Source: an uncultured Verrucomicrobiae bacterium | Lineage (GTDB): Bacteria > Verrucomicrobiota > Verrucomicrobiia > Chthoniobacterales > JAFAMB01 | Reading direction: 5' to 3' | DNA: 64,000 bases | NCBI GenBank assembly: GCA_963762565.1 | Contig: CAVXLD010000004.1 | Span: 113,774 to 177,773 of the forward strand | Notes under the pieces: model-generated | What the model saw: the letters and a program-made list of their open reading frames with translations, nothing else | What the model was told of the DNA's origin: nothing | Database searches by the model: none | Made by a program: the position numbers and the translations under genes | Shown: one piece after another, positions 25,615 to 30,467 of the stretch | Position numbering within the stretch: the first letter of the stretch is position 1 | How the letters are laid out: every line of letters starts with the position of its first letter

Positions 25615-27633
25615 ATGGCGGATCCCCTCCCCTCGCTCGATCTTCGTTTAACGCCCGATTGGCTAAAGGAATCGGAATCGGCAAACCGTTACGCGGATTA
25701 TGCGGACGTAGAACCCGAGGGTCGAGGCAATCGGGCCCGAAGGGAAAGACGCGACGACCGACCGGGTCGGCCAACTCAGAATCGCCAACGGCGAGATGGA
25801 GGTCCCGGAGGTCCCGCTCGGCGGAACGCCACCGGTCAAAATCGTCCGGCTTCAGCTTCACAGACGCGGCCGGTGCGGCCACCCGGCCAATCGAACCGAG
25901 ACGCATCCTCACATCCTGAACGAGTTAGCGACGGAGCCCGCCGGGGCCGCGACGAACCAGTTCAGGACCAAGTCGAGCCGGCAGCCGTTCAGGTGGACTT
26001 TTTGCCAGAGGAACGCGCTTTCTCAAAAGTGATCCAACAGATCAAGCAGGGGCACGCTGCTTATCCGTTATTTGGTCTGGCAAGGATGTTCCTGGAACGA
26101 CCGGAGCGGCACCGGGTCCGGATCCGTTCCCTGAACGATTCGGTAATGATCTATCAGCTCAGTGACGATGGTCCGGTAGCGATGGAGATGTCCGCCCTGG
26201 AGCGAATCGCGTTTAGCGAAAAAAAGGATGACTTTTATACAAGCGATATCGTTGAAAAGGAGCCAATTAAGGGAAATTTCACTTCCGTAGCCCGGTGTGG
26301 CCTTTCCGGACGGCTGCTCGGACCAACGAATTATCATACTTTTCAGAAGGTAATCCGTGCTCTGTACGAACAGCGATTTAGCCGGCGGATGAGTTTTGAG
26401 GAATACCGCCGCAGTATCGAGATCACGAGCGACCCGGAATTGGTTAACCAATGGAAAGAAGAAGCTCGTAAGATCGTCACCTACACGACAAAAGATGAGG
26501 AGAATCCTGCTGCTTTTGAAAGCGCGGCAGCGATGGAGCAACATTTCCGGGTCAATCACCTCGAGAAATTGATCAAGCCCTGTTTGGCCGCCGAGGTATC
26601 GGGAGACGTCGCCCGCCATCTTCCCGACCGCTCAATTATTGCAGCCATTCGCCGGGCCCGCGAACGGGAAAATCGGTTCCCGGCCCAGATGGCAGGAGCG
26701 CTTCGACACGGCTTAAATCAGGCCGGTTTGCATGTGTTCAAACACAAGAAACGCATTCTCTACATCTCAACGATCCGGCCTCAACTCTTTGACCCGAACC
26801 AAGCCAAAGTGTCGCCGGGCTTGGAAGCGATACTCGCGACTCTGCGATCTTACCCCAGAATTACCCGGAAACAGTTGGCGGAGAAGGTCCTGAAACGGCT
26901 GCTGGGCGACAAGAGTACCGACGACCAATCGCCCGAATACCAACAGGCAAAAAATATTCTGCCGACGGATTTGCTTTGGTTAGCAAAAGCGGGCCATGTG
27001 ATTGAGTTCGCTGATGGCACCCTAGACTTGCCTTTACCGCCAAAAATGGTCGAGAAACCGGGTGCGAGCCAAGAGCCCGACGCTCAAGAAGAGGCCGCCA
27101 CAGATGAGGCATATGAGGCCGAAGGCGCAACAGAGGTCGTAACTACCGAAGAACCTGCACGCGACGTCGAGGCGGCAACACAAGCGCCTATCGAGCATGC
27201 GCCGGTTGACCAACAAGCGGTTGAGGAGCATGCGCCGGTTGAACAACTTGAAGAGCACGCGACCATTCAAGAGCACGCTCGGGTTAAGGAACACCCAACT
27301 GTCGAAGCGCATGCAACCGTCCAAGAGCACGCTCCGATTGAGGAACACCCAATTGTCGAAGAACACGGAACCGTTCAAGAGCACGCCCCGGTTAATGAAC
27401 AGGAGATTCAGGCTACCGAAAGCGTAGTAACTGAGGCGCCGCTCAATCCGGAACCGGAACCAGCTTCCAAGGAGTCTTCAAACCCCAAGGTAGAATCCGC
27501 CGAAGCCGGCCAAACGCTGACTTCCGCTGGCTCAGAACCTGACGGAAGCACGCCGGTCGAGCCGGCGGCCCTGACCAAAAGTCACGACCAAAGTCCCACC
27601 ACCAAAGCGGAGTGGGCGACCGCGGAGTCGTAA
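25615..27633 (+). CDS. Hypothetical protein with a disordered Arg/Gly-rich N-terminus, globular core and acidic His-repeat C-terminus
   Basis: 672-aa ORF; AYPLFGLARMFL, CGLSG.LLGPTNYH, DLLWL...GHVIEF core; xEH(A/P)x(V/I) repeats. Confidence 0.8.
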   Translation: MADPLPSLDLRLTPDWLKESESANRYADYADVEPEGRGNRARRERRDDRPGRPTQNRQRRDGGPGGPARRNATGQNRPASASQTRPVRPPGQSNRDASSHPERVSDGARRGRDEPVQDQVEPAAVQVDFLPEERAFSKVIQQIKQGHAAYPLFGLARMFLERPERHRVRIRSLNDSVMIYQLSDDGPVAMEMSALERIAFSEKKDDFYTSDIVEKEPIKGNFTSVARCGLSGRLLGPTNYHTFQKVIRALYEQRFSRRMSFEEYRRSIEITSDPELVNQWKEEARKIVTYTTKDEENPAAFESAAAMEQHFRVNHLEKLIKPCLAAEVSGDVARHLPDRSIIAAIRRARERENRFPAQMAGALRHGLNQAGLHVFKHKKRILYISTIRPQLFDPNQAKVSPGLEAILATLRSYPRITRKQLAEKVLKRLLGDKSTDDQSPEYQQAKNILPTDLLWLAKAGHVIEFADGTLDLPLPPKMVEKPGASQEPDAQEEAATDEAYEAEGATEVVTTEEPARDVEAATQAPIEHAPVDQQAVEEHAPVEQLEEHATIQEHARVKEHPTVEAHATVQEHAPIEEHPIVEEHGTVQEHAPVNEQEIQATESVVTEAPLNPEPEPASKESSNPKVESAEAGQTLTSAGSEPDGSTPVEPAALTKSHDQSPTTKAEWATAES

Positions 27634-27642
27634 GTGGCGAGG

Positions 27643-27931
27643 CGTGAGAAGTGATTGGTGATTGGTGAATAGTGATTGGTGGCGGCGATGCCTTGGTAGG
27701 GCGAGGCTCCCGAAAGACGCAAAGCTAATGCCAGCGCTCGACCTGTTTCGACGCTGAAGAATAAGGGTGCGCTGACAATCGTGCCGAGCCGTTTCGCCTG
27801 ATGTGGCAACTTCCGGGGTGTGCACCTGCTATAGACCACGGCTCGGCGCATGTATCGGTGCGGCAAAAGATGGATTCGTCAGAACTGCCCTCCTTTGCGA
27901 GGCTTTCTAAGTCTTTTGGGAGCCTCGCCCC
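27643..27931. repeat. (GTGATTG)n tract plus family A REPIN (27693-27931) whose right arm is interrupted by the IS element
   Basis: N72 and N71 interiors; arm resumes as ACCAA at 29542; matching (CAATCAC)n tract at 29564-29605. Confidence 0.9.
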
Positions 27932-28044
27932 CCTATGGTGTTGTCAAGCTACCCAGCGTGTTTTTAGCGGTTTGTCATCTTTTGTAGAGCAACGTAGTTG
28001 CCAAAATTTTTAGTTCAGAGATCGAGCCGGTTTGCGACGGTTGG

Positions 28045-28375
28045 TACGTTTCCTCTTGTGGCTCATGTCTCCGAGCTCGATTGGGACAAGGCAGCCTCCT
28101 ATCCGGCCTGTCAGGGTTTGACAGCGCAAGATGCTCTATACGCATCGCTCAAGAGGAACGAGCGCGCCCAATCTACCAACGGGCTTTTAAAGCCCAGGGG
28201 CGAGCACGAGCGCGCGCCGTTCCAAAGTCCAGAGTTAAAATGTTTAGTCTAGTGCTGTGTCAGCTTCTCCCTTAACCATGGGGCCTCTTTAGAGGCGCCA
28301 GCTTGCTCCTGTTTCCCCCGAACCGGGGTTTGGGGCAGAGCCCCAAGTTAAAACCCGAGTCTTCGGGTCACTTCT
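28045..28375 (-). ncRNA. Predicted bridge/seek RNA in the IS 3' non-coding end (boundaries approximate)
   Basis: Target loop: CUCGCCCC (28197-28204), hairpin 28181-28195, UUGGUAGAU (28171-28179). Donor loop: GCAUCU (28129-28134), hairpin 28108-28124, AUAGGAG (28096-28102). Further hairpins at 28281-28299, 28330-28346, 28353-28368. Confidence 0.8.
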
Positions 28376-28384
28376 AAAATGGTT

Positions 28385-29491
28385 TTAGCCCTCGATCATG
28401 ATGAGACCCAATTGCTGGGCAGTAATACGACCGGTTTGTAGCCGCCAGATATCGACGATCAGTTGCCGGCCGATGGCCACCACGGCTTTTTTCTTCAGTC
28501 CTCGGTTAGAGCCCTCCAGTAGCTCACGCCATTTTTGCACCGCTTTATACTCGGGCTGGAAGAGGATCATCCGCCAGACCATCTCGGTGATGATGCGCCG
28601 CAGAGCCGGTAGTCCCACTTTGGTGATTGCACCCAAGCGTTGGCTCTCTCCGCTGCTCCATTCACTGGGCACCATCCCGGCTAAGCAGCCGATCTTGCGT
28701 TCAGTTGAGTAAAGATTCCAATCCAGTACTTCAGCATTCAATTGCGCCAAGCTGGGAGCTCCCATCCCCTTTGGCCGTGGGCCTTGGTACTGCTTGGTTA
28801 GCTCTGCCTTGGCTTGCTCAATTTGCTGGTCTAGCTCGCGTAATATCCCAACCCAGCGACCAAGATGTTTTACAATCCAAGGCGCCACCCCCTTGCTTAA
28901 GTGCTCAAAAGCTTTGGGCCGCCACCAATTGCTCCAGCTCTGGTAGCCCTGGCTCAGCAAAAGGGAGTTGCCCATGACGCCGATGCGCTGGCGTTCTTGC
29001 ACCAGCGCATCGTGCTGGCGACTTTCCACTCGAGCCTGCTCTTGAGCCTCCCTCGGTATTCTGACCAGTTGCAGCGCTTGCTCATTGCCATTGAGATAAT
29101 TGCTCAGATCACTGGTTAAGGTTCGCGCATCAATTGAGTTGTTCTTGCCCCGCTTCCTCTTCTGCTCTCCGCTGCGGGGTGCACAGACCAGGCACTCAAT
29201 CCCGCTTGCCTTTAACTGCCGATACAGCGAGTACCCCAGCGGCCCGGCTTCGTAGACCACCACCACTTCCTTGGCTTGCTCTCGCTGCTTCTCAACGTAA
29301 AGCAACAACGCTTCCTTGCTCCCGAATGTCTGGGCTACTCCCACAGCCCCGTTATCGATCTTGCGGGCCGCCTGATAGCTCTTTAGGTGCGCATCGACTC
29401 CCAGCACGATCCGGTTTGCCTTCGCTTCCTTTTGGCTGTTCTTTTCCTGGCTTACGGCGGTCGGTGCCGCCTTGAGTTTGTATTCAATCAT
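28385..29491 (-). CDS. IS110-family recombinase/transposase
   Basis: RuvC-like LGVDAH, VVYEAGPLG, KNNSIDA; C-terminal GMVPSEWSSG catalytic-Ser motif, G.ITK.G...LR, KKAVVAIGRQL. Confidence 0.93.
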   Translation of the reverse strand: MIEYKLKAAPTAVSQEKNSQKEAKANRIVLGVDAHLKSYQAARKIDNGAVGVAQTFGSKEALLLYVEKQREQAKEVVVVYEAGPLGYSLYRQLKASGIECLVCAPRSGEQKRKRGKNNSIDARTLTSDLSNYLNGNEQALQLVRIPREAQEQARVESRQHDALVQERQRIGVMGNSLLLSQGYQSWSNWWRPKAFEHLSKGVAPWIVKHLGRWVGILRELDQQIEQAKAELTKQYQGPRPKGMGAPSLAQLNAEVLDWNLYSTERKIGCLAGMVPSEWSSGESQRLGAITKVGLPALRRIITEMVWRMILFQPEYKAVQKWRELLEGSNRGLKKKAVVAIGRQLIVDIWRLQTGRITAQQLGLIMIEG

Positions 29492-29654
29492 TGTTTGTCA
29501 GGCTGCTGTTGATCCGGCAGCCTGACAACACCATGGCATCTACCAAAAGAGGGGCCCCGCCCCAAATCACCAATCACCAATCACCTTTCACCTCTCATCT
29601 CTCACCCTCCCCCTCCCCCTTGCCCCCACCCCCCTCCTCCCTTATGGGTTAGGG

Positions 29655-30467
29655 ATGCGCATTGTCCGTTACCTGGCACAGGATGGAAACGTTCGCCACG
29701 CTGCAGAACAGAAGAACGGCACCTGCCTCGATATTCTCGGCGACCTGCTTCATAGCTTCGAAGTGACAGACCGGGAAGCCAAGATGGTGAAAATGCTGTC
29801 ACCGATCGAGCCGCGAGTCATCCTCGGCATTGGGCTCAACTACCGAGGGCACGCTCAGGAACAAGGGATCCAGCTTCCTCAACGCCCTATGCTTTTCATA
29901 AAGGCGCCCAATAGCCTCTCCAATCCCGGCGATCCGATCGTGATTCCAACCCGTCTCCCCAGCACTGAAGTCGATTATGAAGGCGAGTTAGCGGTGGTGA
30001 TCGGTCGCGATTGCAAGAACGTGAGTAAGGCTAACGCCCTCGACTTTGTCCTTGGCTATACTATCGCAAATGACGTCTCGGCCAGAGATTGGCAGAAAAA
30101 ATTCGGCGGAGGCCAATTTTGCCGGGGAAAAAGCTTCGATACATTTGCCCCCATGGGGCCGGTCCTGGTCACGAAGGACGAAATTCCGAACCCCGGTGAG
30201 CTGCACCTTCAAACTCGAGTTAACGGAGAAAAACGTCAGGATACTAATACCAGCGATCTGATCTTTGATGTACCTGCTTTGATCGAGTTCTTGAGTGGCT
30301 CCACAACGTTGTTGGCCGGATCGGTTATTTTGACGGGTACACCCAGTGGGGTCGGAAATTACATGAACCCGCCTCAATACCTGAAGGCGGGTGACGTGGT
30401 TGAGATCGAGATCGAAAAGATAGGGGTTCTAAGTAATCCCGTGACGGTCGAGGACAAGTATGGATGA
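29655..30467 (+). CDS. Fumarylacetoacetate hydrolase family protein
   Basis: IGLNY..H, VDYEGEL, NDVSARDWQ, GKSFDTF.P.GP, ILTGTPSGVG. Confidence 0.93.
   Translation: MRIVRYLAQDGNVRHAAEQKNGTCLDILGDLLHSFEVTDREAKMVKMLSPIEPRVILGIGLNYRGHAQEQGIQLPQRPMLFIKAPNSLSNPGDPIVIPTRLPSTEVDYEGELAVVIGRDCKNVSKANALDFVLGYTIANDVSARDWQKKFGGGQFCRGKSFDTFAPMGPVLVTKDEIPNPGELHLQTRVNGEKRQDTNTSDLIFDVPALIEFLSGSTTLLAGSVILTGTPSGVGNYMNPPQYLKAGDVVEIEIEKIGVLSNPVTVEDKYG

Follow-up and report, generated by a model that had tools for sequence, protein, structure and literature searches.

An intact IS1111-group insertion sequence of a Verrucomicrobiae bacterium with a predicted guide RNA directed to REP-like repeats of its host

Background

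Insertion sequences (ISs) of the IS110 family that target repetitive extragenic palindromic (REP) sequences in Pseudomonas were reportedly described by Tobes and Pareja in 2006. Within this family, the IS1111 group is given a diagnostic layout in the excerpted text of Siddiquee et al. 2024 (PMC11187229), in which inverted repeats of 11-13 bp lie sub-terminally, with extensions of 7 and 3 bp, non-coding DNA follows the gene, and the target is not duplicated. Here we describe an element with this layout, found at positions 27932-29541 of a stretch of 64,000 nucleotides (the window, by which the whole stretch analysed is meant) from contig CAVXLD010000004.1 of an uncultured Verrucomicrobiae bacterium. 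It belongs to the IS1111 group of the IS110 family, is intact, has been active recently and is apparently a new, unnamed member; sequence comparison makes it very probable that it carries a bridge (seek) RNA directed to REP-like repeats of its own host.

The layout is shared with the IS1111 elements ISEc11, ISPa11, ISKpn4 and ISPst6, for which seekRNAs have been described; in the excerpts of the same paper (PMC11187229), these also have a DEDD recombinase with a G-x-x-P-4x-S/T-G motif and the same guide order, and ISPa11 likewise targets REP sequences. The window element differs from the named IS1111 elements in its recombinase, which is less than 33% identical to named plasmid IS110-family proteins, is 368 rather than 330-350 aa long and has Asn in place of the third Asp, as well as in the host phylum, Verrucomicrobiota, and in the target repeat.

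A second related system is IS621 of E. coli (PMC11208158; PMC11208160, excerpt), which also has a two-loop bispecific RNA, with left guides equal to the top strand and right guides complementary to it, and handshake bases matching donor positions 6-7. In both cases a REP end is cut within a CTAC/GTAG tag: the natural IS621 target in E. coli REPs is ATCAGGC-CT-AC (PMC11208160, excerpt), so that GGC-CT-AC of IS621 compares with GCC-CY-AC here. Unlike in IS621, the RNA of the window element lies at the other end of the gene and would be transcribed against the polarity of the site, long inverted repeats are present, a multiloop holds the donor guides, and the target core can be CC with a donor core CT, whereas T9 of the IS621 target is almost invariant. 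The Pseudomonas elements ISPpu9 and ISPpu10 (PMC12288879, excerpt) are similar in having several identical copies at one position of the REP family of their host; they differ in host, repeat and recombinase clade, a distinction drawn from their description and not from their sequence.

Results and discussion

The element and its genomic copies

Four copies of the IS, about 100% identical to each other, are present in the genome of 6.12 Mb (15 contigs): they lie on C4 (the window), C3, C1 and C9. The features that define the window copy are the following.

27932-29541, genes on the - strand: insertion sequence of 1610 bp; the flanks diverge outside it in the 4 copies
27924-27931, + strand: left target and target core, CTCGCC-CC, which the 5' guide of the target loop repeats exactly; the same 8 nt are present in 4/4 copies and in the related genome G005
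27924-27938, + strand: left junction, read directly, with CTCGCC at 27924-27929, CC at 27930-27931 and CCTATGG at 27932-27938
29535-29546, + strand: right junction, read directly, with GGCAT at 29535-29539, CT at 29540-29541 and ACCAA at 29542-29546
29542-29546, + strand: right target ACCAA, shared by the IS copies
27932-27949: right end (gene orientation), with the 3-nt extension CCT at 27932-27934 and then the sub-terminal inverted repeat ATGGTGTTGTCA at 27935-27946
29523-29541: left end (gene orientation), with the inverted repeat at 29523-29534 and then the 7-nt extension GGCATCT at 29535-29541, donor core CT included

The boundaries were established by aligning the flanks of the four copies: similarity stops at 27932 and 29541, save for a short repeat end common to all of them, and the exception to this agreement is one altered end of the C9 copy, described below. 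In an unrelated sequencing run (X7), contigs (2 records) begin at 27932 or end at 29541, as is usual for assembly graphs at repeat edges. All four copies are inserted in one orientation between GGGAGCCTCGCCCC and ACCAA, and insertion is site- and orientation-specific, with no target duplication. The sub-terminal inverted repeat ATGGTGTTGTCA is perfect over 12 bp (27935-27946 and 29523-29534) and is followed by extensions of 7 and 3 nt; at the right end it reaches 27949 if one mismatch is allowed, and its - strand contains TTGACA. Non-coding DNA amounts to 453 nt downstream of the recombinase gene (27932-28384) versus 50 nt upstream. Four features of the IS1111 group are thus present: a PF02371 domain, sub-terminal repeats with 7/3 extensions, a long downstream non-coding region and site-specific insertion.

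An initial annotation, made from the letters of the window, had placed the junctions at CTCGCC-CC-CCTATGG (27924-27938) and GGCAT-CT-ACCAA (29535-29546), and both coordinates and strings are exact. Its assignment of the element to the IS1111 type agrees with the IS110-family recombinase, the IS1111-type ends and the 3' non-coding region, for which about 450 nt had been claimed and 453 nt were counted. It had also suggested a check that other copies sit at CTCGCCC(C/T)ACCAA, and 4/4 copies are found at the same position and in the same orientation within the repeat end.

The predicted guide RNA

The downstream non-coding region contains, on the strand of the gene, two sets of segments matching the sequences joined at insertion.

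28050-28219, - strand: predicted bridge/seek RNA core, with the target-loop domain at 28159-28219 and the donor-loop multiloop domain at 28050-28158
28171-28204, - strand: target-binding loop, with CUCGCCCC at 28197-28204, a hairpin at 28180-28196 and UUGGUAGAU at 28171-28179
28207-28219 and 28159-28170, - strand: stem strands of the target loop, flanking the guides
28096-28134, - strand: donor-binding segments, with GCAUCU at 28129-28134, the hairpin CUGUCA..UGACAG at 28108-28124 and AUAGGAG at 28096-28102
27989-28002, - strand: small hairpin GGCAAC-loop-GUUGC, conserved, between the guide RNA and the right end

In the target loop, CUCGCCCC is the + strand to the left of the insertion point (left target plus core CC), and UUGGUAGAU (UUGGU-AG-AU) is the complement of AT-CT-ACCAA at the right junction, that is, of the right target, the donor core and two donor bases. 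This pattern occurs once in the 64-kb window and in 0/100 dinucleotide shuffles. Among the donor segments, GCAUCU corresponds to the left donor plus core and AUAGG-AG to the right donor plus core, and together they match both sides of the joined element ends. Their pattern, too, occurs once in the window, and it is weaker by itself, since a match was obtained in 6/100 shuffles. The single-sequence fold of the guide-RNA region gave z = -2.87. Rfam, searched at E <= 1 over 27500-30000, gave no relevant family; its two matches were below threshold and to families that are unrelated.

Guide and flank change together in related elements

Relatives of the element were collected from 61 related genomes, from 27 loci on named Verrucomicrobiota/Chthoniobacterales contigs of metagenome-assembled genomes (MAGs), and from at least 80 metagenome loci with a conserved right end. 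The pattern used for the metagenomes had a gap of 3-5 nt, versus 2 in the window type, and therefore collected sister lineages only, while copies of the window type come from genomes of the same genus. By using a regular expression, 55 of the 118 candidate sequences could be parsed; the other 63 were excluded as too short, truncated (locus L040) or without the RNA region. After deduplication, 24 unique guide/flank pairs with 17 distinct guides were available.

The RNA scaffold is conserved across these relatives, and the 8 nt at the position of CUCGCCCC vary. When each guide was compared with the reverse complement of the adjoining flank, the mean match was 7.12 of 8 positions; permuted pairs gave 4.87, with a maximum of 6.12, and 0/10000 permutations were as high as the observed value. 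Examples of such pairs are GCGACCCU with AGGGTCGC, CCCACUCU with AGAGTGGG, CCUCCCCU with AGGGGAGG and AACGCCCC with GGGGCGTT. Several targets are unrelated to the repeat of the window, e.g. AGGGTCGC, AGAGTGGG, AGGGGAGG and GGGACGGG. Where both ends are known, the right target guide tracks the other flank, as in L041 (CGGA-AG-AU beside GGGA-AG) and L048 (UUUGG-AG-AU beside CTGG-AG), and the right donor segment changes with the element end, being AUAGG where the end is CATAGG and AUAGC where it is CATAGC. As regards the lower scores, L048 and L064 match at 4/8 owing to a shift of the register by one base (L048 matches at 9/9 by eye), and L132 matches at 6/8.

It is most improbable that the REP hairpin is instead recognised by protein or through DNA structure, the flank-like segments being captured fragments of the repeat. 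The target is indeed a structured repeat, and none of the 20 listed sequencing runs containing the DNA is recorded as RNA; but the two segments match opposite strands and are split by a conserved hairpin inside a covarying stem, they track the flank across the 17 guide variants, unrelated targets included, and an RNA requirement has been shown experimentally for other IS1111 members (PMC11187229, excerpt).

One of the excluded loci, L040 (MAG contig CAWAIK010000015.1), has the recombinase gene and the left end intact; its downstream part diverges after about 130 nt and is without the guide-RNA scaffold. This element has been truncated or rearranged.

Structure of the RNA

A consensus structure was derived by using RNAalifold on 27 sequences, namely the window and 26 dereplicated relatives, with L023 left out as mis-anchored. 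It consists of six helices with 40 pairs. Paired cells amount to 97.3%, versus 33-51% when the partners are slid by 1-3 columns, a comparison which favours the actual fold, as this was derived from the alignment on which it was tested; the pairs changed on both sides, which are independent of that, are 13 versus 2-5 in the slid controls. None of 500 column shuffles reached any of the five measures. In columns 15/78, for instance, GC is found in 14 sequences and AU in 12.

The target guides lie unpaired in an internal loop, between a 13-pair stem and the small hairpin; an 8-pair stem closes the multiloop that contains the donor segments. Donor-binding nucleotides are likewise located in a multiloop in many IS1111 elements (Durrant et al. 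2024, PMC11208160, excerpt). The order of the guides in the window, in which the segment complementary to the top strand (gene orientation) lies 5', is the one given for IS1111 and the reverse of IS110 in the excerpts of Siddiquee et al. 2024 (PMC11187229).

The first loop of the initial annotation, an 8-nt match to the left target plus core and a 9-nt complement to the right target, donor core and 2 donor bases, is found at exactly the coordinates given there. The tests that it had suggested, folding with covariation and a comparison of guides with targets, gave helices with compensatory changes, target guides in unpaired parts, and guides that change with the flank over 17 variants, other targets included. 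As to its second loop, the location and the match are right, and the right donor guide covaries; the structure is a multiloop and not a simple internal loop, and the left donor guide is the least secure of the segments.

The recombinase

28385-29491, - strand: recombinase gene, 368 aa, with D33, E81, N118, D121 and S280, the last within GMVPSEWSSG

The protein matches PF02371 (Transposase_20) with 46.4 bits, over a cut-off of 21.3. In 118 of 120 homologues, the last G of the G-L-x-P-4x-S/T-G motif is preceded by T (113) or S (5). D33, E81 and D121 align with catalytic residues of a paralogous clade from the related genomes, of ISSso6 and of a relative on a Klebsiella plasmid. The length of 368 aa is outside the 330-350 aa given for the family, and the N-terminal extension responsible for it is conserved in the clade, which counts 472 proteins at E <= 1e-10.

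On plasmids, even the best matches, among them ISEc45, ISSso6 and ISRel9, share less than 33% identity with the protein, which the database sources name no further than 'transposase'. Searched by phmmer against the chains of the PDB, it gave no match; a profile of five clade members weakly reaches the IS621 transposase (8wt6), with E = 0.0057 and over the C-terminal domain only, where the SG of the serine loop aligns.

Observations that weigh against a guide-RNA-directed IS1111 element

A number of results do not sit easily with the reading of this locus as an IS1111 element with a REP-targeting guide RNA, and are gathered here. On the protein side, PF01548 (DEDD_Tnp_IS110) is matched with 28.3 bits (E = 1.8e-6), just under its cut-off of 29, and NF033542, 'IS110 family RNA-guided transposase', with 134.7 bits, just under 140. 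The third catalytic Asp is Asn (N118), the clade having K-N-N-x-I-D-A versus K-T/N-D-x-x-D-A elsewhere; Asp is found at the equivalent position in IS621, ISSso6, the Klebsiella relative and the paralogous clade, and in IS621 mutation of this residue, D102, abolished recombination (PMC11208158). Asn is present in 96 of the 120 best homologues, the other 24 being unmatched by the pattern used. Since the copies are identical and many relatives have been re-targeted, the clade is nevertheless evidently active despite the Asn, as far as its sequences tell.

On the RNA side, a promoter scan found no sigma-70-like promoter in the linear element, and the RNA runs missing from the 20 mentioned above count on the same side. 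By eye, TTGACA of the right end is followed, 17 nt on across the joined ends, by ATGGTG, a poor -10. Among the relatives, the guide CCCACUCU of L121 lies beside AGGGCGAA, with only 4/8 matches, and in L110 and L132 the guides end in CC and the flanks start with AG. L121 may be an off-target insertion or a chimeric contig, and the three may all be natural off-target or half-matched insertions, or chimeric contigs. The left donor guide fits the core only in the window lineage and in the L041 type; elsewhere it reads GCAUCA or GCAUAA, with the element end unchanged (AG-ATGCC). Its GCAUC is in a hairpin loop in the consensus fold and is paired in the single-sequence fold. Finally, an IS-free allele of the window locus, found in contigs, differs from the canonical empty site.

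The points on the left donor guide leave room for a possible, though unlikely, arrangement in which the target loop is a true guide and the assignment of the donor loop is partly wrong, the ends being recognised mainly by the protein on the 12-bp repeats and GCAUCU being coincidental or secondary. The match of the donor segments by chance in 6/100 shuffles, the change of GCAU(CU) to CA or AA in most relatives beside the same end, and the sequestration of GCAUC, or its position in a hairpin loop, in the predicted folds would all agree with it, as would the statement, in the excerpts of Siddiquee et al. (PMC11187229), that end recognition may differ between the IS110 and IS1111 families. On the other hand, AUAGG-AG versus AUAGC-AG changes along with the right end of the element, donor guides in a multiloop have been reported for IS1111 elements (PMC11208160, excerpt), and donor ends vary little in the clade, so that covariation has low power either way.

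The target repeat

The repeat that the IS interrupts has the following parts in the window.

27693-27931, no strand: REPIN-like palindromic repeat (REPIN, REP doublet forming a hairpin) carrying the target, with the left arm TTGGTAGGGCGAGGCTCCCGAAAGAC at 27693-27718 and the right arm at 27911-27931
27783-27792 and 27838-27847, no strand: central inverted repeat, 10 nt, 100%

The outer arms, 27699-27718 and 27911-27930, are complementary at 95% over 20 nt, and two units form the palindrome in the window; the interrupted repeat has its last 5 nt, ACCAA, on the far side of the IS, at 29542-29546. In the genome there are 327 occurrences of the uninterrupted motif CTCGCCC[CT]ACCAA and 467 of the looser motif CTCGCCNNACCA, with CC in 244 cases, CT in 197 and other dinucleotides in 26. 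On the other strand, the 441 repeat ends with CC or CT read GTGG (244) or GTAG (197). Units of about 100 nt, which begin with ACGGCTCGGC and include some 70 nt of variable filler, carry the motif as their terminal block. Read on the other strand, the repeat end is TTGGT(A/G)GGGCGAGG, a REP tag of the GTAG type, and the insertion falls within this tag.

The anatomy is that of REP/REPIN sequences: inverted arms with a central hairpin, abundance, and a GTAG-type end tag. The initial annotation had named a REP family of the host as the target, and the target end is indeed held by a palindromic, REP/REPIN-like repeat of about 440 copies. No link to a REP-associated tyrosine transposase (RAYT) was seen: of 10 matches to PF01797 (Y1 transposase) over the cut-off in the genome, 0/10 have the motif within 700 bp. 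The term 'REP arm' seems fair for this target, judged by its sequence, if it is used with no implication of a RAYT association. A tRNA-like reading of the repeat end (...CCACCA) was also considered and was rejected, as no matching acceptor strand was visible upstream by eye.

Some further features surround the repeat. Arrays of 7-nt words are mirrored around it at 27650-27685 and 29566-29590, with GTGATTG on the left and the complement CACCAAT/CAATCAC on the right; the heptamer array is also found behind many other repeat ends of the genome. At 29551-29563, on the - strand, a terminator-like hairpin, GGGGCGGGGCCCC, is followed by TCTTTTGGT. The T tract overlaps the right target, and the element thus lies directly behind a possible terminator pointing into it; a sequence like this region is also present behind ACCAA in the copies on C3 and C1. 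The stretch 29590-29650, shortly before the start of the next gene at 29655, is a long tract rich in C and poor in purines, CTCTCACCCTCCCCCTCCCCCTTGCCCCCACCCCCCTCCTCCC. Upstream of the repeat, at 25615-27633 on the + strand, an open reading frame of 672 aa has a long acidic C-terminal tail with imperfect repeats of about 8-10 residues (…EEHAPVEQ… / …QEHAPIEEH…).

Target and donor cores differ in the window lineage

In the relatives for which both ends are known, the element has the same two bases beside it at either end, AG in gene orientation, which is CT on the + strand of the window. In the window lineage, the left junction (+ strand) has CC in 6/6 cases (four in G000, one in G005 and one in G003, the last with one C fewer in the C run), and the right junction has CT in 8/8 (four in G000, two in G002 and two in G003), one of the G000 junctions being the altered C9 end. 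The two cores, CC in the target and CT in the donor, thus differ, unlike the identical dinucleotide expected. The left target guide of this lineage ends in CC, versus CU in the relatives, and the second guide and both donor segments keep AG/CU.

Three further relatives, L074, L090 and L130, with two guide types, have the guide-final C beside a flank G; these three, as well as L110 and L132, are known from one element end. Among the parsed elements, G at the core position of the flank is found only with guide C, and with guide U in 0/49. By rough arithmetic, six CC out of six would be expected with about 3% probability if there were no preference between the 244 CC and the 197 CT ends.

It is quite improbable that the difference arose after insertion, by entry into CT sites and later alteration of the left junction through mutation, conversion or assembly error. 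The junction lies within a run of six C, and G003 does show one C fewer; the left junctions, however, agree in 6/6 cases over three genomes, the guide has CC in the window lineage and CU in relatives, guide C is paired with flank G in L074, L090 and L130, and 244 unoccupied CC sites are present in the genome.

A difference between the cores inherited from the target and from the donor can be compared with what is known of IS621. There, the top strand is cut just after the core, whereupon the donor core that comes in, together with donor bases 6-7, is paired by the right target guide (PMC11208158; PMC13626964); the cut in the bottom strand lies four bases further left, and leftover mismatches need cellular repair (PMC13626964). 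With a top-strand cut after the core, the bases to the left of the cut, here including core position 9, stay with their own half, and by analogy the CC/CT junctions fit the top-strand product predicted by the IS621 model. The uniformly CC and CT junctions were considered as new evidence for single-strand transfer, and this was rejected, as they are already predicted by the IS621 work. In IS621, T9 of the target is almost invariant and is read by the protein (PMC11208158). A target C at core position 9 is unusual, and it appears from the guides that this base is programmed by the left target guide.

The AU that follows the core complement in the second guide pairs with AT of the donor, not with CC of the target. 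In IS621, the handshake arrangement favours insertion and hinders excision (PMC11208158; PMC13626964). Both the mismatched core (target CC, donor CT) and the handshake-type extension had been proposed initially; the former is borne out by the junction counts and by the CC of the guide, and the latter is consistent with the published IS621 mechanism.

Irregular copies and an IS-free allele

In the C9 copy (C9:30237-31850, locus L004), eight bases of the left extension and repeat are replaced by four. Its right junction, in the + frame of the window, reads GACAACAC, then AGCT, then CT-ACCAAG, where the other copies have CATGGCAT. With this change the bases for the left donor guide are lost, and the copy is probably immobile.

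The IS-free allele mentioned above was found in the comparison of sequencing runs, which rests on contigs. Contigs of X1 (depth 2) and X3 (3127 nt, depth 18), runs that probably belong to the source study, join 27934 to 29545, skipping exactly 1610 nt, with zero differences over 27800-27934, so that an IS-free allele of the window locus exists. It reads CTCGCCCC-CCT-AAAAG, versus CTCGCCCC-ACC-AAAAG for the canonical empty site, a substitution of 3 nt. Across the repeat ends of this genome, the motif is followed by CCT nowhere but at the four IS junctions and a single remnant, and by CCTAA nowhere at all. Because of this rarity, the allele looks like a footprint and not like an ancestral site; it may be an excision footprint, one which is not derivable from the cleavage pattern of IS621. 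A CC insertion behind 29564 in the contig with this allele indicates that the contig comes from a second haplotype.

The remnant lies on contig C6, - strand, at about 44529 on the plus strand. It is a repeat end with a 15-nt insert at the exact insertion point, CTCGCCCC-CCTATGGACTG-CCCC-ACCAAG; the first 7 nt of the insert are those with which the element begins, and its last four repeat the target bases CCCC. Within 2 kb of the remnant, no 14-mer shared with the IS was found.

Proposed mechanism

Taken as a guide-RNA-directed IS1111 element, the locus would work as follows. The 3' non-coding region would encode, from the - strand, a bridge (seek) RNA of about 170 nt, the + strand of the window corresponding to the 'top' strand of IS621. 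The RNA, once transcribed, would be bound by the recombinase. In its target domain, the extension AG-AU, matching the donor core CT and the last two donor bases, would serve as a handshake guide, holding the incoming donor strand after the top-strand exchange. In the second domain, GCAU(CU) and AUAGG-AG would match the two sides of the joined element ends, presumably those of a circular intermediate. The complex would insert the circularised element, in one orientation, between CTCGCCCC and ACCAA, inside the GT(A/G)G tag.

Re-programming would have changed the left target guide of the window lineage from CU to CC, the donor core remaining CT; a guide with CC would select the GTGG variant of the repeat end. 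With the top strand exchanged first, each junction would keep the core base of its own left half. More tentatively, and with the odds against it, this abundant clade of soil Verrucomicrobiota could be a natural variant of the bridge recombinases that does without identical cores (C9 in the target, T9 in the donor) and has a D-E-N-D site, the IS-free allele and the 15-nt remnant being footprints of a cleavage register unlike that of IS621.

Conclusions

The class of mechanism has been known since 2024; what is newer here is that the target and donor cores are not identical, that the active site has an Asn and that the IS-free allele is odd. Chiefly, the analysis provides a clean and fully annotated example from a phylum without characterised members. 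It belongs to a large clade that has been naturally re-programmed, with 17 distinct target guides on one conserved RNA scaffold in the loci sampled. The second core base of the target may differ from that of the donor and be read by the left target guide, which would relax a nearly invariant constraint of IS621, and the Asn at a catalytic position whose mutation abolishes IS621 activity is of interest for the study and engineering of bridge recombinases. For the soil bacterium itself, the finding would mean that an RNA-guided element lives on the REPIN family of its host, inserting in the GT(A/G)G tag.

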